A stretch of DNA of 64,000 bases from Polyangiales bacterium. Its GTDB lineage: Bacteria > Myxococcota_A > Polyangia > Polyangiales > Polyangiaceae. The position numbers and the translations under genes are program-made. This document shows, in pieces, positions 21,575-43,200 of this stretch; positions within the stretch are counted from its first letter, which is position 1, and the number at the start of each line of letters is the position of its first letter. Location: positions 1 to 64,000 of the forward strand of contig JBBRLQ010000012.1 of assembly GCA_038231275.1 (NCBI GenBank), read 5' to 3'. The notes below the pieces were generated by a model that was given only the letters and a program-made list of their open reading frames with translations, ran no database searches and was not told where the DNA came from.

Positions 21575-22057
21575 TCAACGCGCAGCGTGCGTCCACGTGC
21601 CGCGAATGGTGATCTCGCCGCGCAGCGAGCTCGCGATGTCGCAGCGTTCGTGCGACTTGTGGTGGAGCGCGGCGACGACGGCATCGCTCGGCGGCTTGTC
21701 GCCGGAGAAGCGCACGTTGGGGCGCAGCTCGATGCGCGCGATGCCCGGCTTGCCGTCGCCCATGTCGGCGAGGTCGCCCACCGCCGCGTCCTCGTACGCG
21801 TCGACGACGTAGCCCTCCGCCGCCGCGAACGACAGAAACCAGAGCATGTGGCAGCTCGAGGCAGCCGCGACGAGCGCCTCTTCGGGATCGACGTTCGCCG
21901 GCTCGGAGTACGGCGGGCGCACGGCGTGCGGCGAGGCCGACGCGGCGACGACTGCGCCCCCGTCGAATCTCCACGTGTGCGCCCGACGATAGCGCCCGTT
22001 CGTGAACGGCTGGTCCTGACGAGCCCACGTCACGGCGGCGGTGTGCTGAGAGGTCAT
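21575..22057 (-). CDS. OsmC/Ohr family protein
   Basis: DPEEALVAAASSCHMLWFL and HERCDIASS. Confidence 0.9.
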   Translation of the reverse strand: MTSQHTAAVTWARQDQPFTNGRYRRAHTWRFDGGAVVAASASPHAVRPPYSEPANVDPEEALVAAASSCHMLWFLSFAAAEGYVVDAYEDAAVGDLADMGDGKPGIARIELRPNVRFSGDKPPSDAVVAALHHKSHERCDIASSLRGEITIRGTWTHAAR

Positions 22058-22130
22058 GTCGTCCGCTTGTATCCGAGTCTCCAAGAGACGCAAGCGCCCG
22101 CCCGACCATCACGCGTGTAGGCTGCGCCTC

Positions 22131-23009
22131 ATGAAGCAAGCCACCCGCCCGAACCCGCCCACGCGCGCCATCGGGCTCGAGCGTCAGCCCTTCCAGGACC
22201 TCTACCACTCCGTCCTCACCAGCTCGTGGAGCGCCTACTTCGGTGGTTTCGCCCTCGCGTTCCTCGTCGCCAACGCGATCTTCGCCGCGCTCTACACCAT
22301 CGTGCCGGGGTGCATCGCCAACGCCGAGCCCGGATCGTTTTACGACGCATTCTTTTTCAGCGTGCAGACCATGGCGACCATCGGGTACGGCGCCATGTCG
22401 CCGGCGACGCCGTACGGGCACATCGTCGTCACGCTCGAGGCGCTGGTCGGCATGCTCGGCGTCGCGATCGTGACCGGCCTCACCTTCGCAAAGTTCTCAC
22501 GCCCGACCTCGCGCGTGATCTTCAGCGAGAAGATCGTCCTCGCTCCGCGCAACGGCGTCATGCACCTGATGTTCCGGATGGGCAACGCGCGCCGGAACAT
22601 GGTGCTGGAGGCGCATCTGCGCGTCATCCTCCTGGTCGAGGACATCAGCGACGAGGGCCTCGTGATGCGCGTCCCGCTCGATCTGTCGCTCGTGCGAGAT
22701 CGCACCCCGATGTTCGCCCTCTCATGGACGGCGATGCACAAGATCGACGCCACTAGCCCCTTCTTCGGGGACGACGCGATGGCGAAGCTCCGCGCGAAGA
22801 AGGCCGAGATCTACCTCTCGCTGATGGGCTTCGACGAGACCTTCGCCCAGTCGATCCATGCGCGGTTCCGCTACCGCCTCGAGGACATCGTCCGCGCGGC
22901 GCGCTTCGTGGACGTCCTCACGATCGCCGAGGACGGAATGCGAACCCTCGACTACCGCAAGTTTCACGACGTGGTGCCGCACGAAGGCGGCGATCGTCAG
23001 CCGTCCTGA
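22131..23009 (+). CDS. Inward-rectifier potassium channel (KirBac)
   Basis: FFFSVQTMATIGYG selectivity filter, two TM helices, FAKFSRP, cytoplasmic Kir domain (LMFRMGN.R, SWT.MH.ID..SP). Confidence 0.95.
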   Translation: MKQATRPNPPTRAIGLERQPFQDLYHSVLTSSWSAYFGGFALAFLVANAIFAALYTIVPGCIANAEPGSFYDAFFFSVQTMATIGYGAMSPATPYGHIVVTLEALVGMLGVAIVTGLTFAKFSRPTSRVIFSEKIVLAPRNGVMHLMFRMGNARRNMVLEAHLRVILLVEDISDEGLVMRVPLDLSLVRDRTPMFALSWTAMHKIDATSPFFGDDAMAKLRAKKAEIYLSLMGFDETFAQSIHARFRYRLEDIVRAARFVDVLTIAEDGMRTLDYRKFHDVVPHEGGDRQPS

Positions 23010-27948: not shown

Positions 27949-30399
27949 CTACTGGGCGAGCATCGCGCGGACGCGTTCCAGTAGCTCGGCGGGCGTGAAC
28001 GGCTTCGCGAGAAACCCGGCCAGTCCCTTTCCTGCGAAGTGGCTCGTCGCCTCCTGCTCGGAGTACCCGCTCGAGAGGAGCACGCGGACCGTCGGATCCA
28101 TCTCGCAGAGGCGCCGGAAGGTCTCTTCGCCGCTCATGCGCGGCATCGTGACGTCGAGCACGACGGCGTCGATTCGACCGAGGTTCTGCGCGTAGACCTC
28201 GAGCGCCTCGTCACCGTCGCCCGCCACGAGCACGGTGTAGCCCTGCTGCGCGAGGATGCGTTTCACGACGCTGCGCACGCTCGCGTCGTCGTCGACGACG
28301 AGGACCGTGGCGGCCGACGACGGAGACGGGACGACGCTGACAGCGGGAATCGTCGGCGCATCGACCGCGGGAGGCGCCGCCGGGAAGAGGACCTTGAATG
28401 TCGTCCCCCGGCCGACCTCGCTCTCCACGTCGATCGCGCCGCGGTGCGCGCGCAGGATCCCGAGCGCCGCCGCGAGACCGAGGCCGCGGCCGGTGAACTT
28501 CGTCGAGAAGAAGGGGTCGAAGATCTTCGCGCGCGTCTCGGGCGTCATGCCGGCGCCGTCGTCCGACACTTGCAGGCAAACGTACACGCCGGGCGCGAGC
28601 CGATCGTCCAGGTACGTATCGGCGAGGTGCGCGCGGTCCACGTCGACCAGGCGCGTCGTGACCGTGATCGTGCCGGCGCGCTCGCCGATGGCGTCCGACG
28701 CGTTGGTGATGAGGTTCATCGCCAGCTGCCGGATCTGCGTGGGATCCCCTTCGATCCGGGGCAATTCGTGGCCTAGCGCATACTCGATGCGGACATTCTT
28801 CCCGATCACCGCGGACAGGAGGTGCGCCATCTCCTCGACGACGCGCCCCAGATCGATCCGCGCGATGACGAATCGCCCGCGGCCGGAGTACGCGAGGAGC
28901 TGCCGCGTCAGCTCGCTCGCCCGCAAGGCGGCCGTCTGGATGTCCTCCACGATCGCGCGCACCGGCGACTGCGGCGGAAGCTCCATGAGCGCGACGCCGG
29001 CGTTGCCGAGCACACTGACGAGCAGGTTGTTGAAGTCGTGCGCGACGCCGCCGGCGAGCACGCCCAGGCTCTCGGCCTTCTGCGCGCTCTGGAGCTTCTC
29101 CGCCAACCTCCGCGCTTCGGTGATGTCGCTGACGACGACCAGGATCGCCTCGCGGCCTTGCTCTCCTACGCGGGTGGCGGTCGACGAGTAGCAGACCTCC
29201 CGCCCCGTTCGCGTTCGCGTGGTGTTCTCGAAGCGCGCCGTCGTCCCTGCGAAGCGCAGGGCGAGCCGCTCCTTCAGCGACTCGACATTTTCGGGACGGA
29301 CGAAGTCGAGGTAGCGTTTGCCGACCAGCTCGTCGGGCAGCAAATCGAAGATCTCGCCGAATCGACGGTTCGTGTACGTGAAGACACCATCGCCGTCGAT
29401 GACCGCGATCCCCTCCCGCGTCGTCTCGACGATTTCGCGGTAACGTTTCTCGCTCTCGCGCAGGCGCGCCGCGACGCGCTCTTTGTCGGCGAAGAGGCGC
29501 GCGTTGGCGAGCGCGCCGACCGCGAGATCGGCAATCCCCTTGAGCAGCGCGAGCTCGTCGGGCGAGAGCTCCCGCATCTCGCCATACGTGATGACGTTGA
29601 GGTACCCCAGCACCTCGCCCTGCCGCACGAAACACGCGAACGCGAGCGAGCGCACGTCGTAGGTCTTGATCTTGTCGGAGTGGAGCAGGTTCGGGTCGGC
29701 CTGCATGTCGACGATCTGGGACACGCCGCGCGCGGCCACTTGGATGACCATCGGATACGGCGCCGCGGTCGGCTCGCGGTTGCTGGTGAGACCATGCCCA
29801 TATTGCGCGACGAGATCGCCGGTGGTCGGCTCATAGAGGGCGGCGACCACCGACGGCGCCGACAGGGCGAGCGCCGTCTCCTCGCACACCATCCGCATCG
29901 CGTCGTCCACACGGACGAGGGCGCTGAGCTTCTCGGCGATGCGCATGAGCACCTCGCCGCGTTGCTTCCCGATGCGCAGCTCCTCCTCGCGTCGCACGCG
30001 ATCGGTGACGTCCGTAGTGCACCCCTCGACGCGGACGCGGGCGCCGGTCTCGTCGTAAACGTGGAGCGCGCGCGACGACGCCCACCGGAGCTCGCCACGC
30101 TTGTAGAAACGGAAGTCGAGGGTGTACGTGTCCGGCGCGTCGACGAGCGCGCCCGCAAGTCGCGGCCGGTCATCGGGATGCACGGCGTCGAAGAACGTTT
30201 CGCTCGTGTACGGCGTGTCGGGCCCGAGGCCCAGGAAGGCCTGCGCATTGCGGCTGACGTAGAGCAGCTCGAACGTCCGGGCATCACGGACCCAGACCAT
30301 GTCTCCGAGCGCTTCGACGATCGACGTCGCGGCTGACGGGTCCTCCCCCAACGATCCTTCTCCTCGGCGATTCGGCGGCGCGCGCCAATGCATTGGCAT
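27949..30399 (-). CDS. Hybrid sensor histidine kinase (PAS-GAF-PAS-HisKA-HATPase-REC)
   Basis: H-box GGVAHDFNNLL, N-box NLITNASDA, DDGAGM, FFSTKFTGRGLGL, C-terminal receiver. Start codon uncertain. Confidence 0.93.
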   Translation of the reverse strand: MPMHWRAPPNRRGEGSLGEDPSAATSIVEALGDMVWVRDARTFELLYVSRNAQAFLGLGPDTPYTSETFFDAVHPDDRPRLAGALVDAPDTYTLDFRFYKRGELRWASSRALHVYDETGARVRVEGCTTDVTDRVRREEELRIGKQRGEVLMRIAEKLSALVRVDDAMRMVCEETALALSAPSVVAALYEPTTGDLVAQYGHGLTSNREPTAAPYPMVIQVAARGVSQIVDMQADPNLLHSDKIKTYDVRSLAFACFVRQGEVLGYLNVITYGEMRELSPDELALLKGIADLAVGALANARLFADKERVAARLRESEKRYREIVETTREGIAVIDGDGVFTYTNRRFGEIFDLLPDELVGKRYLDFVRPENVESLKERLALRFAGTTARFENTTRTRTGREVCYSSTATRVGEQGREAILVVVSDITEARRLAEKLQSAQKAESLGVLAGGVAHDFNNLLVSVLGNAGVALMELPPQSPVRAIVEDIQTAALRASELTRQLLAYSGRGRFVIARIDLGRVVEEMAHLLSAVIGKNVRIEYALGHELPRIEGDPTQIRQLAMNLITNASDAIGERAGTITVTTRLVDVDRAHLADTYLDDRLAPGVYVCLQVSDDGAGMTPETRAKIFDPFFSTKFTGRGLGLAAALGILRAHRGAIDVESEVGRGTTFKVLFPAAPPAVDAPTIPAVSVVPSPSSAATVLVVDDDASVRSVVKRILAQQGYTVLVAGDGDEALEVYAQNLGRIDAVVLDVTMPRMSGEETFRRLCEMDPTVRVLLSSGYSEQEATSHFAGKGLAGFLAKPFTPAELLERVRAMLAQ

Positions 30400-30493
30400 A
30401 GTCAACGGGATGACGTCTTCGCAAGCGCTTTGGCGAATGATCGATGGGCGCCAGCGGCCGCAGACGAGGCGCGGCGCTTGCACCGCCACGGGC

Positions 30494-32119
30494 ATGCACA
30501 CGCGAACTCGGCGCCTCGTCGCCTCCGTGAGCACCTGCGACCTCGACCGTGGCCGCGCGATCGCCAAGGACGGTCTCATCCTCCATCGCGACGAGCGGGG
30601 GATCGTAAAGGCCGCGCGAAACCGCTGCCGACACATGGGCGGCACGTTCCAGACCGAGCACGGTTGCCAGCTCAAATGCCCGCGCCACGGCTGGACCCTC
30701 GACGCGTCCACGATGCGCTACGTCAACCCGCAGGGGGATCTCGCGCAAGCGGAGCTCGAGGTCGAGGCCTCAGGCGATCTCCTATACGTCTTCGAGAGGA
30801 CGCCTCATCGGCCGTGGGCCGATCGACTGCCGCGCGAGGCGCTCGCCCGCGGGGAGCTGGTGGTCCGCTTCCTCGCGCACGCGTGCGTCGAGATCACGTG
30901 CGGCGCGAAACGAATCGTCACGGACCCGTGGCTCGTCGGTCCGGCGTTCACACGCGGGTGGTGGCTCGCCCACGAACCGCCGGCCGACGCGTTCGAGCGC
31001 CTCGCGCGCGCCGACGTCGTCTTCATCAGCCACGATCACTCCGATCATCTGAACGAGCACACCCTTCGTCGGCTCGCGGCGATGCGGTCCGACGCGCCGC
31101 TCGTCGTGCCTGGCTTCGCGAGCGGGCGGTGCGAGAGGCTCGTCCGCGCGCTCGGCTTCACGAACGTGACGCGCGCGCCGATCGGCGAATGGGTCCCGCT
31201 CGGTGGCGCGACGCGCCTCATGGTGCTCGGCGACGGCGCCGGGCGCGAGGACTCCGCGCTCCTCGTCGAGCACAAGGGTCACACGGTGCTCGACACCGTC
31301 GACTGCATGAACCCCAACGAGGGCGATCTGCCGGAGGTCGACGTCCTCCTCTCCCAGTTCGCCGGCGGCGCGAGCGGCTACCCGGTCTGCTGGGGCGAGC
31401 TCTACGACGCCGAGCGCGTCGCGCGCATCGTCAAGAAAAACCGCGCCCAGACGCGCGCCTATGTCCTCGATCTGGTGGCCGCGACGAAGCCGCGCGCGTG
31501 GATGCCGATCGCCGGCTACTTCGTGGAGGCGCACCCCGCCGACGCCGACGTGGCGCGCGCCAACCAGAAGAACGATCCCGACGCGATCGCCGAGGCCGTC
31601 TCGTCGCGCTTCCCTCGGGTGCGAACGCACCGCGCGATCCCTGGCGCGGTGATCGATCTCGCCGCGACCGAAGAGCGCGATCCGTCTTCGGAAGCGGGCG
31701 CCGCGCGACCTTCGCACGACGTCGCGCCGTATGTCGCCGCCATCGCCGCCGACGCCGCCCTTCCGGAGCTCGCCACGCTCGAGGGCGTGCAGCGCTACTT
31801 TGACTGGGCGGGATTTCGCGGCGATCTCGTGCTCCACGTGATCGAAACGACCGAGAATTTTCAGGAGATCGTGCGCGAGCTCTTCGTCGACTTCGCCAGC
31901 GGCGAGGTCTCGTCCGCGCGCCCGCCCACCTCCGCGCGCTACGAGCGCATGCGCGTGCGCAGCGACGTGTTCCGCCACGTCCTCCGTCGGGGCGCGTCGT
32001 GGGAGGAGATCAGCATCGGCTTCCAGGCGCGCTTCTACCGAGAGCCGGACGTCTACAACATGGACTTCTGGATGCACTTCCAGCACGCGCTCCCGGAGAC
32101 GCCGGCCTTGCTTGGATGA
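30494..32119 (+). CDS. CMP-N-acetylneuraminate hydroxylase (CMAH)-like protein (Rieske + metallo-beta-lactamase fold)
   Basis: Rieske CRHMGG...CPRHGW; DPWLVGPAFTRGWWL.HEPP; SHDHSDH; FAGGASG.P; AGYFVE.HP.D; YFDWAGF; IGFQ.R...FW.HFQ. These are collinear with animal CMAH as recalled. Confidence 0.85.
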   Translation: MHTRTRRLVASVSTCDLDRGRAIAKDGLILHRDERGIVKAARNRCRHMGGTFQTEHGCQLKCPRHGWTLDASTMRYVNPQGDLAQAELEVEASGDLLYVFERTPHRPWADRLPREALARGELVVRFLAHACVEITCGAKRIVTDPWLVGPAFTRGWWLAHEPPADAFERLARADVVFISHDHSDHLNEHTLRRLAAMRSDAPLVVPGFASGRCERLVRALGFTNVTRAPIGEWVPLGGATRLMVLGDGAGREDSALLVEHKGHTVLDTVDCMNPNEGDLPEVDVLLSQFAGGASGYPVCWGELYDAERVARIVKKNRAQTRAYVLDLVAATKPRAWMPIAGYFVEAHPADADVARANQKNDPDAIAEAVSSRFPRVRTHRAIPGAVIDLAATEERDPSSEAGAARPSHDVAPYVAAIAADAALPELATLEGVQRYFDWAGFRGDLVLHVIETTENFQEIVRELFVDFASGEVSSARPPTSARYERMRVRSDVFRHVLRRGASWEEISIGFQARFYREPDVYNMDFWMHFQHALPETPALLG

Positions 32120-32136
32120 AGCTCCGGGGGACCGTG

Positions 32137-33396
32137 TTAGGGACCGCTCTTCTCCCTCAGGAACCACGTCGTCATCGGGCCCTTGCCCTTCACATCGACC
32201 GTGCCGCGCGGCTCGAATTCGAAGCGGCCTTGGAGCGCGTGCTTGACGGCATCCGTCACGTGGACTTCGCCGGGCACGCCGTGCGACTCCATCCGCGCTG
32301 CCGTGTTCACGGTGTCGCCCCAGAGGTCGTAGGCGAACTTGCGATGGCCAATCACGCCAGCGATCACGGGCCCTGTGTGGATGCCGATGCGTATCGAGAG
32401 TTCGACCCCGTGCTTGCGGGCGAAACGAGCCGGAACGTGCACCATTGCCAGCGCCATTCGCGCGGCCGCTTCGACGTGATCCGGGCGCGGGACTGGGACG
32501 CCCGCTGCCACCATGTACGCGTCACCGATGGTCTTGATCTTCTCGAGACCGAGACGGTCGGCCTCGTCATCGAAGGCCGAGAACACATCATCGAGCAGAG
32601 CGACCAGGGCAACCGGTTCGGTACGCTGTGCGAGCGTCGTGAATCCTACGATGTCGGCGAACAGGATGGTCGCTTCGTCGAAGCTCTCCGCTGGAACGCG
32701 CCCGTCCGCGAGCAGCCGCGCGGCGATGGAAGCCGGAAGGGTGTTGTTCAGCAGCGCCTCGGTTTGCCGGTGCGCTCTTCGGGCCAACTTCTCCGCGTGC
32801 TCCGCCGTGCGGGCGAAGAAGTACGTGACGGCCGAGACGAAGAGGAACGCCGAGACCTCATTGCCCGTGTGCATCTTCGAAAGGAGCGAGGGGGAGAGCG
32901 CAACCGGCGGCGTAGCGCCCTCATAGTGCACCGCCAGCAGCAGGAAAGCGCCGAGGCCCATCACGATGCCTCCCACCGTCACGGCGCGCCGCTCCCAGGG
33001 CATGAGCAGCAGCACCGGTAGGGTCGCGAGGATCCAAAACTGAAACCCGGCGTCGAGCCCGAGGTAGTGCACACACAGCGCTTGATGCGTGGCTACCTCG
33101 CCCACGACGAGCGGGACCGCGATCTGGATCCGTCCTGTCTTCTGCAAGAGCTGGCGCGCCCCAATGAAGACGAGCACGCTAAAGACGTTGTAGACTGCAA
33201 GCGCCGGCACACCGAGAGCCCCGAAGAGCGCGATGAAAGCAGCGTGGATTACGATTCCTCCGACGGAGGCGCGGCGGAGCGTGATGGCGGTGCGCTCGGG
33301 CAAGCCGACCGAGCGCTCGTCGCCCGATAGGGAGGTGAACGTCGTCGCGAATCTCTCGCCTTTCGTTTCGCCGACGGGCAAAGCAGGGCGGGCCAT
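32137..33396 (-). CDS. Membrane-bound class III adenylate/guanylate cyclase
   Basis: N-terminal TM helices; TILFADIVGFT, KIKTIGDAYM, RIGIHTG, YDLWGDTVNTAARMES. Start uncertain. Confidence 0.93.
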   Translation of the reverse strand: MARPALPVGETKGERFATTFTSLSGDERSVGLPERTAITLRRASVGGIVIHAAFIALFGALGVPALAVYNVFSVLVFIGARQLLQKTGRIQIAVPLVVGEVATHQALCVHYLGLDAGFQFWILATLPVLLLMPWERRAVTVGGIVMGLGAFLLLAVHYEGATPPVALSPSLLSKMHTGNEVSAFLFVSAVTYFFARTAEHAEKLARRAHRQTEALLNNTLPASIAARLLADGRVPAESFDEATILFADIVGFTTLAQRTEPVALVALLDDVFSAFDDEADRLGLEKIKTIGDAYMVAAGVPVPRPDHVEAAARMALAMVHVPARFARKHGVELSIRIGIHTGPVIAGVIGHRKFAYDLWGDTVNTAARMESHGVPGEVHVTDAVKHALQGRFEFEPRGTVDVKGKGPMTTWFLREKSGP

Positions 33397-34065: not shown

Positions 34066-36519
34066 TCAGCGCGGGCACGCCGTGGGGTAGAGGAGGTATT
34101 TGTCGCGCTTCACACGAAACGCCGCGAGCTCCTTGTCCCACGTCGCCTCGATCTCAGGCAGCGTCTTGCCTTGCGCGATCGCGTCGAGCGCCGCGCGGTT
34201 CGCGAGGAGGCGATTCACGTCGTCGAAGTGCCACTTGCCGGCGTGGAGCGTCCGCAAATCGCTGGCCAGCGCGAGGCCGGCGCGTACCGGCTCGAAGCGC
34301 GCGCGATCGGTGACGGTGATGCGAACGCCCGAGCAGCGCTCGCCCTTGTACGGCGCCGCCTGCGGAGTGAAGGTGGTCGCGGCGAACGAGACACCGGGGA
34401 TCCCGCGACCGGTCAGCGCGGCGGCGAGCACAGGCCCGTCGACGAACGGCGCGCCGACGACCTCGAACGGCGTGTCGGTGCCGCGACCGACGGAGAGGTT
34501 CGTCCCCTCGACGAGCCCCACCGCCGGATAGAGGAGCGCCTCGGTGACGCTGCGGAGGTTGGGTGACGGGTTCACCCACGAGAGGCCCGTCGCTTCGAAA
34601 TAGTCGCCGCGCCGCCATCCCTGCGCCGCCACCACGTCGAGCGTCGCGCCGAGGTGGTCCTCCGCATCGAAGAGGAGCGCGAGCTCGCCGATCGTCATCC
34701 CGTGGCGAACGGGCAGCGGGCCGTGGTGCACGAAGCTCTTGGACGCCGCGTCGACGAGCGGACCGGCGACGTCGAGGCCGTCGATCGGATTGGGCCGGTC
34801 GAGGACCATGAAGGCCACGCGCGCGAGGCTGGCCGCCTTCATCGCGCGGCGCAGCGTCGACGGGTACGTGTAGTAGCGCGTGCCGACGTCCTGCACATCG
34901 AAGACGAGGACGTCGAGCCCCTCGAGCGTCTCTGGCGGCGGCGCGAACGTGGCGCCGTAGAGGCTCACGACCGGGAGGCCCGTGGTCGCGTCGCGCCCGT
35001 CGGGGAGGAGCCCCTCCTTGTCGGCGCCGAGGCCGTGCTCCGGCGTGAAGATGCGCACCAGCGTCATGCCCGGCGCGGTCGCGAGGAGATCGATCGTGCG
35101 CGTCCCGTCTTTCGCGCGCCCCGACGCGTTGGTGAGGAGGCCAACCTTCTTCCCGCGCAGGCGCAAAAAACGCTCGGCGCGCAGGACGTCGATCCCCGTC
35201 AGGACGTCGCGCCCGTCGTGCTCGCACGGCGACGGCGTGCGCGCGAGACCTGCGACCTCTGCGGCGATCGTTCCGATTTTCGCCTCGAGCTCGTGGACGG
35301 CGCCGCGCCCGTACGGGTGAACGCGGTTGCTGAGGAAGAGGACGAACAGGTCCGCGTCCGGATCGATCCACAGCGACGTACCGGTGAACCCGCCGTGGCC
35401 GAACGCGTGCCGGGAGAGGCCCTCACCGCGGTGCTTGGTGAACGCGCTCGACATGTCCCAGCCGAGCGCACGGATTCCGCCGGGCACGTCGTGCGGCGCG
35501 AGGAACGCGGCGAAGGTCGACGGTGAGACGACGCGCGCGCCGGAAATCTGGCCTTTCCCGAGCCACGCCTGCGCGAAACGAGACAGGTCGCGCGCGGTGG
35601 AGAAGAGGCCCGCGTGACCCGCGACGCCGCCGAGCGCGTAGGCGCGAGGATCGTGGACCTCGCCCTGCATGAAGCCGGCGTCGGGGCGCATCTCCGTCGG
35701 CGCCGCGCGGGCGCGCATCGGCTCGGGCGGCGTGAACGACGTCTCGCGCATGCCGATCGGCGCGAAGACGTTCTCGGCCGCGAAGGTCGCCACGTCCTTT
35801 CCGCTCACCCGATGGACGAGCTCGGCCAACACCATGAAGCCGACGTCGGAGTAGACGAGGCGCTCGCCGGCGGGCCATCGCGCCGGCGCGTCGAGGATGC
35901 GTCGCCACGCCTCGTCCGGTCCGCGCGCGAAGTCGCTCATCGGGTTGTCGGCGACGAGCCCTCCCACGTGAAGGAGCAGCTGCCGCACGGTGGTGGCCCC
36001 TTTCCCTCCGTGCGCGAACTCGGGAAGGTACGTCGCGACCGGCTCGTCGACGGCGACTTGCCCGCGATCGACGAGCACCATCACGCTGGCCGCCGTCGCG
36101 ATCGGCTTGGTGAGCGACGCGAGATCGAACACGGTGTCGATCTGCATCGGCAGTCGCGCCGGCGCGAGCGCGCGCTGCCCGAAGGCGCGCTTGTAGAGGA
36201 TCTCGTCCTTTCGCCCCACCACGACGACGCAGCCGGGCATCTTGCCCTCGACGAGCGCCGCCTCCGCCGCGGCCGCGATGCCGGCGAAGCGCGGGTCCTC
36301 GACGGAAGGACCCGCGAAGGGATCGGTAGCGGCGCCGTCCGCAGCAAACGCGGTGGCCGCCTCGACGTCGGCGTCGGAAACGAACGCGCCGGCGGCTCCC
36401 GAGGAGACGGGAGCGACCGGCGCGCGGGCATCGGGCGGCGGAGACTCGGCGCAGAACGTCAGGAGCGCGCCGAGGATGATCGGAGCGACGACGAGAGCAG
36501 CGCGAAGCGCGCGGGCCAC
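34066..36519 (-). CDS. Serine hydrolase (beta-lactamase-like) fused to a DUF1343/NamZ-type exo-beta-N-acetylmuramidase
   Basis: FDLASLTK (SxxK), YSD, HGGFTG; then GIDVL, PEHG, DVQDVGTRYYTY, LDRPNP, PSPNL, EGTNLSVGRGT. Confidence 0.9.
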   Translation of the reverse strand: MARALRAALVVAPIILGALLTFCAESPPPDARAPVAPVSSGAAGAFVSDADVEAATAFAADGAATDPFAGPSVEDPRFAGIAAAAEAALVEGKMPGCVVVVGRKDEILYKRAFGQRALAPARLPMQIDTVFDLASLTKPIATAASVMVLVDRGQVAVDEPVATYLPEFAHGGKGATTVRQLLLHVGGLVADNPMSDFARGPDEAWRRILDAPARWPAGERLVYSDVGFMVLAELVHRVSGKDVATFAAENVFAPIGMRETSFTPPEPMRARAAPTEMRPDAGFMQGEVHDPRAYALGGVAGHAGLFSTARDLSRFAQAWLGKGQISGARVVSPSTFAAFLAPHDVPGGIRALGWDMSSAFTKHRGEGLSRHAFGHGGFTGTSLWIDPDADLFVLFLSNRVHPYGRGAVHELEAKIGTIAAEVAGLARTPSPCEHDGRDVLTGIDVLRAERFLRLRGKKVGLLTNASGRAKDGTRTIDLLATAPGMTLVRIFTPEHGLGADKEGLLPDGRDATTGLPVVSLYGATFAPPPETLEGLDVLVFDVQDVGTRYYTYPSTLRRAMKAASLARVAFMVLDRPNPIDGLDVAGPLVDAASKSFVHHGPLPVRHGMTIGELALLFDAEDHLGATLDVVAAQGWRRGDYFEATGLSWVNPSPNLRSVTEALLYPAVGLVEGTNLSVGRGTDTPFEVVGAPFVDGPVLAAALTGRGIPGVSFAATTFTPQAAPYKGERCSGVRITVTDRARFEPVRAGLALASDLRTLHAGKWHFDDVNRLLANRAALDAIAQGKTLPEIEATWDKELAAFRVKRDKYLLYPTACPR

Positions 36520-36537
36520 CCGTTCAGAGTACCCGAA

Positions 36538-38445: not shown

Positions 38446-38450
38446 TCACC

Positions 38451-39425
38451 TCATTGAAGCGCGCGCGGGCGACGACGCCACGTGACGCGCGTTGCAGGGC
38501 CGGACGTGCGCGAGATTTCGTCGATCTCGCGCGCAAACGCGTCGAGCTGCGAGAGGCTCCCGAGCTTCGGAACGATTAGGACCTCGCCATCGGACAGCGT
38601 CACGGGCGGCACCAGACGGCCTGGCGGCGCGGGCGCTCCGAGCGGGCGAAGCGCATCGACCTCGGGGCTGCGGCCCGGCGCGAGCTTCGCGGTCACGGCG
38701 CGGGCCGCGGCGCGCACATCGTCCGCGCGCGATCGCGACGAACCGGCGAGCGACGCGGCGTCGAGTGCCAGCGCGATTCGTGTCTCCGGCGTGCGCGCAC
38801 GCGCCCTCAGCGCCTCCAGCGCAACGTCGCACCCCTCCCCTTCGATCTTCACGACCGCCGCGGCCGCCAGCGGCCACGCCAAGAAACGCGCACGGTTCTC
38901 TCCCTCGTCGCGATCGCGCGCGACGCCGTCGCGAAAGAGCGCGAAGCACGGCGCGCCGGCGGGGGCCTCCGTGCACGACGCGCCGATCCCGACCGTCAGC
39001 GCGCCGTCGGACGAGGACGCGGTCCTTCGCGCGATGTAGTGCGCCGCCGTCAGCGTCGGCGCGAGGCGCTGCCTGACCGCGCGAACGGCCTCGTCGGGCG
39101 GCCCGTCCTCGAGGTCCTCTCCGAGCGGATTTTTGCGGATCTCCACGCGCGCAGCGAGGAGCCTCAGGCCTATCTCGAGCTCGGCGAGCTCGGCGTCGGA
39201 GAGCGCCGCGAGGGCGACGCCCATGACCTGCGCTTCGCCCTCCTCTCGTATCGCCGTTGGGGCGACCGCCCCGGCCGGCGTGATCCAAACGACCGGCGAG
39301 GCGATCCCGACGTTCGTGTCGTTCAGGTCGTTCGCGACGATCGGCGCGTGTCGAAGCGACGGGCGCACGAGCGCGAAGAGGCCCATCGCCGCAGCGACGA
39401 GCGCGCCCCACTTTCCCGGCGCCAC
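38451..39425 (-). CDS. Hypothetical protein with an N-terminal membrane anchor
   Basis: GAGGAG upstream of the GTG; hydrophobic N-terminus; co-oriented with upstream genes. Confidence 0.5.
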   Translation of the reverse strand: MAPGKWGALVAAAMGLFALVRPSLRHAPIVANDLNDTNVGIASPVVWITPAGAVAPTAIREEGEAQVMGVALAALSDAELAELEIGLRLLAARVEIRKNPLGEDLEDGPPDEAVRAVRQRLAPTLTAAHYIARRTASSSDGALTVGIGASCTEAPAGAPCFALFRDGVARDRDEGENRARFLAWPLAAAAVVKIEGEGCDVALEALRARARTPETRIALALDAASLAGSSRSRADDVRAAARAVTAKLAPGRSPEVDALRPLGAPAPPGRLVPPVTLSDGEVLIVPKLGSLSQLDAFAREIDEISRTSGPATRVTWRRRPRALQ

Positions 39426-39429
39426 CTCC

Positions 39430-40140
39430 TCACCCCTGATGGCGGCGGCGCGCCGCGAACTCGCCGCCGGTGCCCGTCGTGCCGCTGGCGAGCGTGTCCG
39501 TGACGTGCGCCGTGAAGCTCCCGGTGAGCGTGCCGGCGCTGGCGCAGCTGACCTTGAAGTCGTTCCCGTGGAAGGTGGCGTCACACGACGCGGCCCCCTG
39601 CGAGAGGTGCCATACTCCGCCGAGATCGCCGAAGCTCGAGGCCAACGTGCTCACGCGCGTGCCCACGAGGCTTCCCCTGATGGCCACGTGCCACCACGCG
39701 GCGTCCACGTACGTGCAGCTCGCCGCGAGGCCGCCCGCCCCGAGCTGCGCATCACAGCGCTCCCCGGCGCCGCGCCCCGTCCCCGTGAGGGCCCACGTGC
39801 CTCCGACGTCGAGCGGAAAGGCGCCGGTGTCGAGCGGTGCGGACGCGCGGGAGAGGTCGATCACGTGGACCCCGGAGGCGCTCCGCGACGTGAGCGTCAT
39901 CGCGTCACCTGCGCCGCGCAGCTCGAGAGTATTTTCGCCGACCGTAAGCTCCACGTGCGACCTCTCGAGGACGAGCGTGCCAGTGGTCGACGACGCGGCG
40001 CTGGGCGTCGCCGTGAGATCCCACGTGCCGGAGAGGGCCGACGCGGCGAGCGGGGCCTCGCTCGAGCCGTCGACGAGAGTGCCTCCACACGAAATCGCAG
40101 CGAGACCGATGACGAGAAAAGGAAGAAGCATGGGCCGCAT
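39430..40140 (-). CDS. Putative lipoprotein with repeated GxW beta-strand units
   Basis: GGAGG RBS; lipobox AISC; three G.W.L repeats. Confidence 0.65.
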   Translation of the reverse strand: MRPMLLPFLVIGLAAISCGGTLVDGSSEAPLAASALSGTWDLTATPSAASSTTGTLVLERSHVELTVGENTLELRGAGDAMTLTSRSASGVHVIDLSRASAPLDTGAFPLDVGGTWALTGTGRGAGERCDAQLGAGGLAASCTYVDAAWWHVAIRGSLVGTRVSTLASSFGDLGGVWHLSQGAASCDATFHGNDFKVSCASAGTLTGSFTAHVTDTLASGTTGTGGEFAARRRHQG

Positions 40141-40310
40141 GGGCACCTCCATATTCGAAGACCTCGCACGCACTGCAAACGTCGCGCCGCTCGAGCTCGC
40201 GCCGATTGATCGCGATTTCGTCGTCGCGCGCGACACGTGGGCGCGATCGCGCGGCGCAGAGCACGACGGGGGCGCCATAGCGCAGTGGCGCATCACGGTA
40301 CGCACGGCGA

Positions 40311-40889
40311 TCATCCTTTGATGAACCGCGCGACGACCGGGCGCGGCATGGATCCGTGGACCGCGCCGGGCGCCCATTTCATCTCCAGCGGACCGCCGGC
40401 GAACGTGACGAGATAACTCGGCGTGGAGAGGATGTTGGGCCCGAACGCCAACACGAAGGTGTCCGGGTAGCAGCACGACAAGTCTTTCCCCCACGAAAAC
40501 GTTCCCTGGCGTGAGGCGTCGCGCGAGAAGACGTTGGCGCCATCGGGGACGAGCGCGAAGAACTGACCGCTCGGCAAGAGCTCGATCGCCGCGGGCGCCG
40601 TCGGGTCGGACGCCTCGCAGAGGAACCAGCGGCCATCGAGAAGAGCGCGCGCGGCCAGCCCGGTCTCGGGCTCCGGAGCGCTCGGCGTCGCCGCGCAGCG
40701 ACGCGCGACGGCGCCGAGATCGACGGGCGCGGCGGGGTTCACGTTCGAAACGCGCGCGTCGTCGTAGCCGACGTCGAGCGACTGCCCGCCGCACGCGCCG
40801 GCGCACGCGACGCATGCGGCCGCGACGATGCCTCCCACGGTCTTTCTCGTCGCAGTGCGCATCACGGGAGTGCTTGGGGACAGGGTCAT
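40311..40889 (-). CDS. Putative lipoprotein
   Basis: Lipobox AGAC; GRWFLC; downstream of the ECF/anti-sigma pair. Confidence 0.6.
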   Translation of the reverse strand: MTLSPSTPVMRTATRKTVGGIVAAACVACAGACGGQSLDVGYDDARVSNVNPAAPVDLGAVARRCAATPSAPEPETGLAARALLDGRWFLCEASDPTAPAAIELLPSGQFFALVPDGANVFSRDASRQGTFSWGKDLSCCYPDTFVLAFGPNILSTPSYLVTFAGGPLEMKWAPGAVHGSMPRPVVARFIKG

Positions 40890-40907
40890 CGCGTCATTTC
40901 CAAATCG

Positions 40908-41639
40908 TCATTGCGGCATCGACGCGAGCGTCGCGTTGACGGAGCCTAGGGAGACCGAGCGCGGGAATCGCTCGCGAAACCGCTCCCCGCGCGCGCGCGC
41001 TTCGGTGTAGCGGGCTGCCGCGGCGAGCGCTTTCACGGCGAGGGCCTCGCGCTCCTCGGCCAGCGCCCCTTGCGGGTAGGTGCGCTCGTGACGCTCGACC
41101 GCCAGGAGGGCCGCGTCGGGCTCACCGCGCGCCAGCGCCGCGCGCGCGCCGTCGAGGAGCATGCGTTCGGCCGCGAGCCCACGCGCGTCGATGACGGGGA
41201 CCGACGGCGCCGGCGCGCGGGCCGTCGCGGCGTTCGCGGGCGACGGGGCCACCGATGGCGACGGTGGCACGTCGAGGATTTCGAGGACCGTGCTCGACGG
41301 CCCTGGCACGACGCGCTCGACGTAGGTGACGCGCGCCGGTGGAGTTGGCGTCGACGCGCGCATCCCGAGCGCGCCGACCGTCACGCCGACGAGCAGCGCG
41401 CCAACCAGGCCGGCGACCGGATGTGCACCCATCGTGCGCGCAAGGGACGACCGAGCGCCGCCGTCATCCACACCGCCACCACCGCCACCGTCACCGCCAC
41501 CGCCTGAGGGCGGCAGCAGCGCGATCCTCGCCTCCACCGCGCCCAGCACGCGCGCGCGGAGCTCGTCGGGCGGCGCGGGCGCGAAGCCTTTCTCGGCCGC
41601 CACGAGCGCGGCGAGCTCTTCGTCGATCGGATCGGTCAC
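40908..41639 (-). CDS. Putative anti-sigma factor (single TM, Pro-rich linker, C-terminal TPR-like helices)
   Basis: GTG overlaps the sigma stop. LAAER.LL..AR.AL..G...HERTYPQG.LAEERE..F..RFP.S. Confidence 0.7.
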   Translation of the reverse strand: MTDPIDEELAALVAAEKGFAPAPPDELRARVLGAVEARIALLPPSGGGGDGGGGGGVDDGGARSSLARTMGAHPVAGLVGALLVGVTVGALGMRASTPTPPARVTYVERVVPGPSSTVLEILDVPPSPSVAPSPANAATARAPAPSVPVIDARGLAAERMLLDGARAALARGEPDAALLAVERHERTYPQGALAEEREALAVKALAAAARYTEARARGERFRERFPRSVSLGSVNATLASMPQ

Positions 41640-42187
41640 GGGTGCCGCACCTTTCTCGCGCCGCCGAGACGTCGGGCGGCGGCCGCGACGTCGGCCCGCG
41701 CGCTCCGCAAGCGCGAGCTCACGGTGCCGTCCGGAATACCGAGCGCCTGGGCCACCTCGGCGGTCGTCAGCTCCTCGAGATCGTGGAGCACGAACACCGA
41801 CCGGCGATCGGCGTCCAGCGTATCGAGCGCCTCCGCCAGGAGCTCGCGCTGGCGGGCGCGGTCGAGCGCGTTCTCGGGAGCGCTCGAGGGGGCCGCGGCA
41901 TCCGGCTGCTCGCCGAGGATTTCGGCGCGGTGGCGCGCGAGACGCCGGTGCTCCGACGCCACGCGCGCCGCAAACGCGCATAGCCAGGGGCGCGCAGGAC
42001 GCGCGGAGTCGTAGGTGCCAATCGCCTTGTACACGCGGAAAAATACCTCGTTCGCGAGGTCCTCGCGGTCCGCCTCGGCCACACCGAGACGTCGCAGGAC
42101 GTTCCACACGAAGCCGAAGTTCTCGGAAAAGAGGGCGCGAAAGACGACCGCCACCTCCTCTACTTGGCGCGTGGTGGGCTGGCTCAT
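41636..42187 (-). CDS. ECF RNA polymerase sigma-70 factor
   Basis: Region 2 FVWNVLRRLG..EDLANEVF..RPWL; region 4 FVLHDLEE...GTVSSRL. Confidence 0.92.
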   Translation of the reverse strand: MSQPTTRQVEEVAVVFRALFSENFGFVWNVLRRLGVAEADREDLANEVFFRVYKAIGTYDSARPARPWLCAFAARVASEHRRLARHRAEILGEQPDAAAPSSAPENALDRARQRELLAEALDTLDADRRSVFVLHDLEELTTAEVAQALGIPDGTVSSRLRSARADVAAAARRLGGARKVRHP

Positions 42188-43200
42188 CGAAAAATCTGCA
42201 CGCCAAGGCCGACGCCGACGTCGAACGACACCGAGGGCGCCGTGAAGACGAGCGCGCCGTTCATGTAAGCACGGTGAGGCGTGAAGGAGCCGAGGCCGGA
42301 GAGTGCGCCGAACGCGTAGACGGGGCCCGCGAGGGCAACCGCCGCGCCGAACCGCGCGCCGGCACCCGTGAACAAGGCCGCCGCGGATCGAGGCGCGCTC
42401 ACCTCGCTCGTCGTGGCGCGAAATGAACCGAGCGCGCCGAGGACGCACGCGAACGGACGCCACCTCTCGCCGACGAGAACGCCGCACGCGCTCGCGACGA
42501 TGAGCGCGCGCGAGGCCTCCACGCGCCCGCCCCCTGGAATCGCGTCGGACGCGGGCAGCTCGTAGTGTCCATCGACGCCGAGGGACCAGAACCTCCCGAC
42601 CACGCGCGCGCCGAGGCTGCCCCCGAGCGTCGGCGACGGCGCGCCCGCCGCGACACCGTGCCCTCCGAGCTCCAACGCAAGGCCGAGCGTGCGCGGAGCT
42701 TCCGGAGCGGCTGGCCCCGGGTCGGGCGACGCGGTCGCGGCGGGGGGCGTGACCGGCGCGGCAGGCGAGGGCTCCGCGAGCGGCGGCGTCGACGGGGCTG
42801 GGTCCGGCGCAGGCGCGGACGGCGCAGGCGTATCGAGATCGTCGATCGCGATGCTGATCGCGAGCGCGAGGCTCTTCACCACCTCGCCGCAGTCGCTCGT
42901 CGTGGACGGAAGCGCGCGCTCGCCGAGCGACACGCCGGCGTCGTCGAGGATCTTGAGCTCGGCCGAATAGCCGCTCGGTCCTTTCTGGATCTGCGCCACG
43001 ATCGTCCGGTTCGCGGTCGGAAAAAACGGATCGTAGCCCAGTCGATCGGCGACGGCGCGCCGCAGCGTGGCCTCGTCGGGGCACCCTTGCGCGCCGGGCC
43101 CGCGGACGTACGTGAGGCGCGACGTCGGCGACGCGCGCGCGGATCCCGTGACGGCGACGGTCGCGACGGCCGCCACGAGCAGGGCGAGACCGCCTCTCAT
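42184..43200 (-). CDS. Exported protein with an N-terminal Cys-containing domain, Pro-rich linker and C-terminal beta-barrel-like domain
   Basis: Signal peptide (ARA); CPDE..L; amphipathic beta strands; stop overlaps the sigma start. Confidence 0.65.
   Translation of the reverse strand: MRGGLALLVAAVATVAVTGSARASPTSRLTYVRGPGAQGCPDEATLRRAVADRLGYDPFFPTANRTIVAQIQKGPSGYSAELKILDDAGVSLGERALPSTTSDCGEVVKSLALAISIAIDDLDTPAPSAPAPDPAPSTPPLAEPSPAAPVTPPAATASPDPGPAAPEAPRTLGLALELGGHGVAAGAPSPTLGGSLGARVVGRFWSLGVDGHYELPASDAIPGGGRVEASRALIVASACGVLVGERWRPFACVLGALGSFRATTSEVSAPRSAAALFTGAGARFGAAVALAGPVYAFGALSGLGSFTPHRAYMNGALVFTAPSVSFDVGVGLGVQIFR

Follow-up and report, generated by a model that had tools for sequence, protein, structure and literature searches.

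We analyzed a 64,000-nucleotide stretch of DNA from a Polyangiales bacterium (contig JBBRLQ010000012.1; hereafter the window) and studied in it one forward-strand gene, at 30494-32119, which encodes a homologue of the animal CMP-N-acetylneuraminate monooxygenase, CMAH (which we take to be EC 1.14.18.2). The gene and the parts of its product are as follows.

30494..32119, + strand: CMAH-family monooxygenase gene of 541 codons plus stop, intact (translation, homologues and AlphaFold2 model)
30551..30709, + strand: Rieske [2Fe-2S] domain, residues 20-72 (Pfam PF00355, E 2.8e-7, above cut-off)
30857..31663, + strand: catalytic domain of the metallo-beta-lactamase (MBL) fold, about residues 122-390 (Pfam Lactamase_B_3 and Lactamase_B_2; FrsH/CmlA profile matches)
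31031..31048, + strand: HxHxDH metal-binding motif, H180, H182, D184 and H185 (conservation; aligns with HNHQDH of CmlA and FrsH)
31691..32116, + strand: C-terminal domain, about residues 400-541, with YFDWAGF, IGFQAR and FWMHFQ (colinear with animal CMAH to the end)

The open reading frame (ORF) enclosing this gene on the + strand runs from 30299 to 32119. The ATG at 30494 was supported as the start, because it is kept in the related locus L003, where the upstream sequence diverges, and because the N-termini of the homologues coincide. L003 comes from a Myxococcales assembly and its homologue is 81% identical to the protein studied here (hereafter the query). The translation contains GPAFTRGWWLAHEPP, FAGGASGYP, AGYFVEAHPAD, KNDP, YFDWAGF, IGFQAR and FWMHFQ, together with CRH...CPRH of the Rieske domain and SHDHSDH, which carries the HxHxDH motif; these motifs were also found in the animal sequences of a 22-sequence alignment. 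The GC content of the gene (0.70) and that of its third codon positions (GC3, 0.87) were like those of the neighbour genes, in a window of about 70% GC throughout.

A word-indexed homologue search with the query returned 130 proteins at E<=0.001, the best 120 of which are described here. Among these matches listed, 12 were named animal CMAH proteins (from starfish, fishes, hemichordates and amphioxus), with 37-40% identity, 83-99% query coverage and E values from 3.8e-112 to 5.9e-88. In the same set, the homologue of the alga Mesostigma was 42% identical to the query, bacterial and metagenomic homologues, dozens of them bacterial, were 45-81% identical, and three homologues from other assemblies were 78-81% identical, a range that includes P0003 and P0004. 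Close relatives among them were already labelled 'CMP-N-acetylneuraminate monooxygenase' or 'Rieske 2Fe-2S domain-containing protein [Polyangiaceae bacterium]'. Compared by BLASTP with the starfish (Asterias) protein P0094, the query showed 38% identity over 572 colinear columns (E 8e-130). This similarity to animal CMAH is far beyond chance, and the query is a CMAH homologue. An earlier note on this DNA had described a full-length homologue of the animal type, with a Rieske domain, HxHxDH and the long motifs given above; the intact 541-residue ORF, colinear with the animal proteins at the identities and E values just given, confirmed that description.

The query and animal CMAH share the order of Rieske domain, MBL fold and C-terminal domain, the long motifs, the metal ligands and the same supported clade. 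In contrast, the query is shorter and does not have a C-terminal extension of about 40-120 residues; in the 22-sequence alignment, several invertebrate and unnamed forms have a hydrophobic tail at the end of this extension. The query differs also in having no visible cytochrome b5 partner and no linkage to a sialic acid pathway in the window, and its activity is a predicted one.

The conservation of the probable metal ligands was analyzed in the 22-sequence alignment and in a larger set of 132 sequences. The Rieske ligand motifs are C45-x-H47 and C62-x-x-H65; across the 132 sequences C45, H47 and C62 were invariant and H65 was at least 90% conserved. HxHxDH did not vary among the 22 aligned sequences, and in the set of 132 it was at least 90% conserved. 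Of the 54 invariant columns of the smaller alignment, which include C45, H47, C62, H65, H180, H182, D184, H185, D253 and D270, the query keeps all 54, and D253 and D270, together with the metal ligands, were invariant or at least 90% conserved in the larger set. The Pfam models of the MBL fold (Lactamase_B_2 and Lactamase_B_3) matched residues 124-236 above their cut-offs. No Pfam model matched the C-terminal domain (about residues 400-541), and NCBIfam gave no protein-specific model for the query, only weak partial matches.

An AlphaFold2 model built from the 132 aligned sequences reached a mean pLDDT of 95.3 and a pTM of 0.93, with a confident C-terminal domain except for a loop near residue 395. 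When this model was compared with the PDB using Foldseek, the best matches to the MBL domain were FrsH (E 4e-11), NAPE-PLD and CmlA, with a query-normalised TM-score of about 0.34. The family profile likewise matched FrsH (E 9.4e-16) and CmlA (E 6.9e-12), both non-haem diiron monooxygenases of the MBL fold; HxHxDH aligned with HNHQDH of these two proteins, D270 with an Asp of CmlA, and a conserved acidic stretch of CmlA lies near D253. For the Rieske part, the profile matched the Rieske ferredoxin T4moC (E 2e-9). No CMAH entry was found in the PDB, where sequence and fold searches matched separate domains only. CmlA and FrsH (PDB 4jo0 and 8a90) are the closest solved relatives of the catalytic domain and share with it HxHxDH and the MBL fold, which activates O2; they differ in having no Rieske domain and in acting on amino acids bound to a carrier protein, and only about 165 of their residues align with the query. 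We also considered a Rieske non-haem iron oxygenase of the alpha-subunit type and rejected it: only the Rieske domain matches, the catalytic domain being of the MBL fold and not the START/Bet v1-like one, with its 2-His-1-carboxylate iron site, that such oxygenases have.

According to the sections of PMC4819959 that deal with the animal enzyme, CMAH converts CMP-N-acetylneuraminic acid (CMP-Neu5Ac) to CMP-N-glycolylneuraminic acid (CMP-Neu5Gc) and needs NADH, cytochrome b5 and b5 reductase; a structure of it had not been reported. The product of the ORF would be a soluble CMAH-family monooxygenase with a Rieske [2Fe-2S] cluster, a non-haem iron site of the MBL fold, probably binuclear, and a family-specific C-terminal domain. 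An external donor would reduce the Rieske cluster, from which the electron would pass to the metal site; O2 would be activated there, and the N-acetyl methyl of a nucleotide-activated sugar would be hydroxylated to give the N-glycolyl form. We infer the relay from Rieske cluster to iron and the O2-dependent hydroxylation of the acetamido methyl from the diiron MBL relatives, the likeness to T4moC and the electron system of animal CMAH. The metal content, the electron path and the substrate are predicted for the query.

NamH is the Rv3818-type hydroxylase that acts on UDP-MurNAc in Mycobacteriales. The N-acetyl to N-glycolyl chemistry is also performed by NamH, as stated in the relevant parts of PMC6481270 and PMC10050696; CMAH is called there a distant homologue of NamH (PMC6481270), and NamH is said to combine a Rieske domain with an MBL domain of UlaG type (PMC10050696). 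The species-genome motif scan presented below gave no Mycobacteriales locus among those kept, and when an actinobacterial member of the family was used to start a homologue search, only its own subfamily was found. Two NamH-type proteins were obtained by tblastn on plasmid records and identified by the Pfam Rv3818 domain and gene context.

L080, 4016-5605: NamH-type coding sequence of Tsukamurella, 529 residues, beside acyltransferase and haloacid dehalogenase (HAD) genes, with serS nearby
L079, 4016-5569: NamH-type coding sequence of Nocardia, 517 residues

SCP2_Rv3818 (PF25451) was found in L079 (E 3.8e-48) and in L080 (E 7.5e-44), and the order of domains in both is MBL, SCP2_Rv3818 and a C-terminal Rieske domain, permuted relative to CMAH. 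In the query the Rieske domain stands first, and PF25451 gave no match at E<=0.1. The query aligned with the Tsukamurella protein in the MBL part only (26% identity, 330 columns, E 1e-13), the Rieske motifs pairing out of order. CMAH and NamH share the same two cofactor domains, the same chemistry and detectably homologous MBL domains, and differ in the permuted order, in an identity confined to the MBL part and in a separate deep branch for NamH.

This branching was observed when a tree was built from 62 rows and 284 columns of the MBL domain (IQ-TREE PMSF, short search); 60 of the rows were hand-picked from 262, and the two NamH-type rows served as the root, via a very long branch. All 60 rows of CMAH architecture formed one clade (SH-aLRT 100) with the NamH-type rows outside, and the query fell inside a 44-row clade with 6 animal rows (support 96). 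A FastTree analysis of the 262 rows (sequences of 470-720 residues, 6 near-duplicates removed) gave a 128-row set with the query and 12 animal rows, again with support 96. In a full-length tree of 84 rows, the query, L003 and P0003 came together (100) within a 9-row Myxococcota clade (93) that also holds L005 and L014. This clade lies in an unresolved 38-row group (84) with the Mesostigma protein and a clade of 7 animal rows and 16 unnamed representatives (95). The clade of the query is one of several bacterial lineages that come nearest to the clade of the animal enzymes, although the branching order there is not settled. The earlier note had proposed BLAST and phylogeny against CMAH, to be set against a clustering with generic Rieske/MBL proteins or NamH-type hydroxylases. 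The match was colinear and full-length, the query grouped with the animal enzymes, and the tree, the domain order and the 26% identity limited to the MBL part all favoured the CMAH type. In family membership, architecture and conserved ligands, as in its placement, the query goes with animal CMAH and not with NamH.

To describe the distribution of the family, two family motifs were scanned over 185,579 species genomes, one genome per species. We observed 107 relatives, of which 78 loci were kept; these come from at least 15 named phyla of Bacteria and from haloarchaea (Pseudomonadota 27, Bacteroidota 16, Campylobacterota 7, Acidobacteriota 6, Myxococcota 5, and others). An exhaustive search of representatives gave 2267 clusters at E<=0.001, the weakest of which may share one domain only with the query, 672 at E<=1e-10 and 189 at E<=1e-30. 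Following Simakov et al. 2015, homologues of CMAH had already been reported from 60 prokaryotes and two green algae, as stated in the part of Peri et al. 2018 that concerns them (PMC5767959). This wide distribution and the earlier reports contradict the view, taken in the earlier note, that non-animal homologues are sparse; the existence of bacterial homologues is therefore not new. The gene studied here is a further member of the bacterial CMAH-like group that Peri et al. reported, with a predicted activity. It differs from part of that group in that the sub-clade of the query and L003 is unlinked to neu genes, versus 25 of 77 related loci that are linked. A literature search found no functional test of a bacterial CMAH homologue or of a linked cluster, only statements that the function is untested; in the SugarBase preprint, the terms glycolyl, Neu5Gc and CMAH do not occur.

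Within the family, we also observed that the most divergent clade (Acidobacteriota, Actinomycetota, haloarchaea and others; about 600-660 residues) often carries an extra N-terminal DUF1858 domain (PF08984), for example in P0268, P0272 and the L051-L078 group. In gastric Helicobacter (L060, L064, L068, L069, L073; L040), the CMAH homologue adjoins genes for Rieske, cytochrome b and cytochrome c1 proteins and for a pyridoxal phosphate enzyme, and H. cynogastricus has two copies of the homologue on different contigs.

The genes and features around the CMAH gene are the following.

27952-30717, - strand: ORF for a PAS hybrid sensor kinase/response regulator, upstream and divergent, its true start probably further in
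30382..30405, no strand: conserved block between the divergent sensor kinase and CMAH genes, near-identical in the window and L003
32140-33615, - strand: adenylate/guanylate cyclase gene, downstream and convergent
34069-36537, - strand: beta-lactamase and NamZ fusion, with a serine beta-lactamase-like domain and both NamZ (exo-beta-N-acetylmuramidase) domains in one ORF
after the NamZ fusion: urease cluster
L003, 11788-14376, - strand: NamZ fusion of L003, beside the CMAH gene as in the window

The block of about 24 bases at 30382-30405, upstream of the CMAH start, is kept in L003 amid diverged flanks and may be a regulatory site. A promoter scan of 30100-32400 detected no sigma-70-like site, and three terminator-like sites inside the gene, on the opposite strand, were near the level of shuffled sequence. 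In L003 the order is HDOD, HDOD-response regulator, FGE-sulfatase, kinase, CMAH, NamZ fusion and ureD, an order common to the window. In L003 the cyclase gene is missing from this position, so that the two close relatives differ by an insertion or deletion. In view of these surroundings, the CMAH gene is a stable resident of the chromosome in the lineage. The gene is apparently monocistronic and outside any sugar cluster. Because it stands alone between a divergent kinase and a convergent cyclase, a sugar pathway and an electron donor would be encoded elsewhere.

We then analyzed the neighbourhoods of the related loci. ORFs of the 78 loci were clustered and the recurrent clusters were named by Pfam on one representative each; L059 did not contain a clustered CMAH ORF, which left 77 loci. 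At least one gene for a NeuA-type cytidylyltransferase, a NeuB-type synthase or a NeuC-type epimerase was present in 25 of the 77 loci, and all three in 19. When only loci with at least 8 kb on both sides were counted, 21 of 51 held a gene of these types. This linkage would be far above the level of unrelated genes, as estimated without a control set, because 20 kb make up well below 1% of a typical genome. In 21 of the 77 loci, the CMAH homologue had a class I (Methyltransf_11-type) or TylF-type methyltransferase gene at a distance of no more than 400 bp, the ORF ends often touching or overlapping, and 38 loci held either a neu-type gene or a methyltransferase. Examples of these methyltransferase neighbours are given here.

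L004, 3903-4598: methyltransferase gene
L011, 9241-9921: methyltransferase gene
L005, 11590-12393: methyltransferase gene
L014, 9013-9960: methyltransferase gene

Such a neighbour hints at a coupled hydroxylation-methylation step, which may lead to further, O-methylated products. In L005, a Myxococcota locus in the 9-row clade of the query (48% identity), we observed TylF on the other strand, then a Maf-like transferase, NeuB, NeuC, NeuA, the CMAH homologue and a second TylF, with all genes from the Maf-like transferase to the second TylF on one strand and the end of the NeuA ORF at the start base of the CMAH ORF. Within 10 kb, L005 had no dehydratase or aminotransferase gene, and this points to a Neu5Ac-type route. 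A TylF-type gene also adjoins the homologue in L014 (Polyangia), L001 (Nitrospira) and L007 (Nitrospinaceae), and L002, L003 and the window have neither a neu nor a TylF-type neighbour. As a separate observation, a FAD_binding_6 gene (ferredoxin-NADP reductase-like) near the homologue in four alphaproteobacterial loci (L023, L027, L028 and L072) is a candidate for the electron donor.

On these comparisons, the reading that we favour, with our confidence evenly balanced, is that the query would be a working CMAH-family monooxygenase hydroxylating the N-acetyl group of a CMP-nonulosonic acid, the conversion of CMP-Neu5Ac to CMP-Neu5Gc being a first guess and the pathway lying elsewhere in the genome. 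At the level of the family, the neuA/B/C linkage in 25 of 77 loci makes bacterial synthesis of Neu5Gc plausible. Several points weigh against this reading. An identity of 38% would not fix the substrate, and the names given to neighbour families rest on one representative per cluster. Pfam analysis of 122 ORFs of the window (48 + 74) found no NeuB, CTP_transf_3, Epimerase_2, sialyltransferase, Cyt-b5 or ferredoxin domain, so that the window shows no cytochrome b5 electron supply of the animal kind, and no Maf or methyltransferase partner gene was found in it. L003, which is syntenic and the closest relative with context, has no neu, cytochrome b5 or partner genes within 10 kb. In the own clade of the query, neu genes were nearby in only one of five loci (the window, L002, L003, L005 and L014). 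CMAH-like sequences are noted in microbial genomes including Helicobacter in the passages of two reviews that treat the subject, with the remark that their activity was not examined and that no microbe had been shown to make Neu5Gc de novo (PMC6288428, PMC6724515). The last of these points is the legionaminic-type clusters, with dehydratase and aminotransferase genes, around many relatives, which are taken up below. A tblastn search of the window (E<=1e-3), made with every member of ten families of neighbour genes at the related loci, matched only a generic short-chain dehydrogenase/reductase (SDR) gene at 50.5 kb; by this search, as by Pfam on the 122 ORFs, the window has no sialic acid pathway or cytochrome b5 gene, as the earlier note had stated.

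The clusters just mentioned belong to L006, L008, L032, L055 and L062, where the genes beside the homologue (SDR dehydratase, DegT aminotransferase and NTP-transferase) are those typical of legionaminic acid routes. They argue for the same chemistry on a different CMP-nonulosonic acid (legionaminic, pseudaminic or novel), whose N-glycolyl derivative would not be Neu5Gc. For Tannerella forsythia UB4, the pertinent part of PMC5378307 mentions a possible N-glycolyl legionaminic acid, assigned from mass alone. However, the nearest pathway-linked relative, L005, has NeuB, NeuC and NeuA only, and the query falls in one clade (support 96) with the animal enzymes, whose substrate is CMP-Neu5Ac. We regard this alternative as unlikely, while giving it some weight.

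We give about the same low weight to the possibility that the query, as an orphan of the family, now acts on an unrelated substrate that is not a sugar or has fallen out of use. Signalling genes are its neighbours, and no pathway genes stand alongside in the window, L003, L002 or L014. By contrast, all 54 invariant alignment columns are kept, including every metal ligand. Moreover, the intact ORF, a GC3 like that of the neighbour genes and the 78-81% identity to the three homologues from other assemblies among the matches listed argue for purifying selection.

A cell-wall role like that of NamH, in which UDP-MurNAc or another UDP-N-acetyl sugar would be hydroxylated, would agree with the two cofactor domains and the chemistry described for NamH in the parts of PMC6481270 and PMC10050696 cited above. 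It would also agree with the fusion of beta-lactamase and NamZ, an exo-MurNAc-ase, whose gene follows the CMAH gene at 2 kb in the window and immediately in L003. We consider this role very improbable: the NamH-type proteins of L079 and L080 have the order MBL, SCP2_Rv3818 and Rieske, versus a Rieske-first query without SCP2_Rv3818, the identity of 26% is confined to the MBL part, and the two groups stand on either side of a very long branch; furthermore, the NamZ gene is convergent and its pairing with the CMAH gene occurs in only two closely related, syntenic genomes. Finally, an origin of the gene by contamination with eukaryotic DNA or by very recent acquisition from an animal, for which the resemblance to animal CMAH alone speaks, has a negligible probability and is refuted by the GC and GC3 matching those of the neighbours, by bacterial genes on both flanks, by a gene order common with the Myxococcales assembly and by animal proteins only 37-40% identical versus dozens of bacterial homologues at 45-81% among the matches listed.

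Going further than the favoured reading, a Polyangia-like bacterium may make CMP-Neu5Gc or another N-glycolyl nonulosonic acid de novo, and its clade, of Myxococcota/Nitrospirota type, may be the stock of the eukaryotic, and hence the animal, CMAH; we put this combined proposal forward tentatively, as more doubtful than the enzymatic role itself. Neu5Gc is treated as a deuterostome cell marker absent from microbes, and humans have antibodies against it. If true, a bacterial enzyme producing CMP-Neu5Gc would change this picture of Neu5Gc as a deuterostome marker, would offer for CMAH, whose structure has not been solved, a soluble model that is easy to express, and would bear on the origin of the animal CMAH gene. 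The question is a real one in glycobiology, and the window adds to it one intact member from the bacterial clade close to the animal enzymes, without pathway context. This copy adds little over relatives with a better genomic context, and relatives such as L005, with its neuB-neuC-neuA operon, are better experimental targets.

Two other observations were made in the window. Between ureD and ureAB/ureC, at 38450-43200, about 4.7 kb contain several long ORFs of high GC3, none with a Pfam match. At 22050-23006, on the + strand, an ORF carries the IRK and IRK_C domains of inward-rectifier potassium channels and corresponds to a KirBac-type channel.

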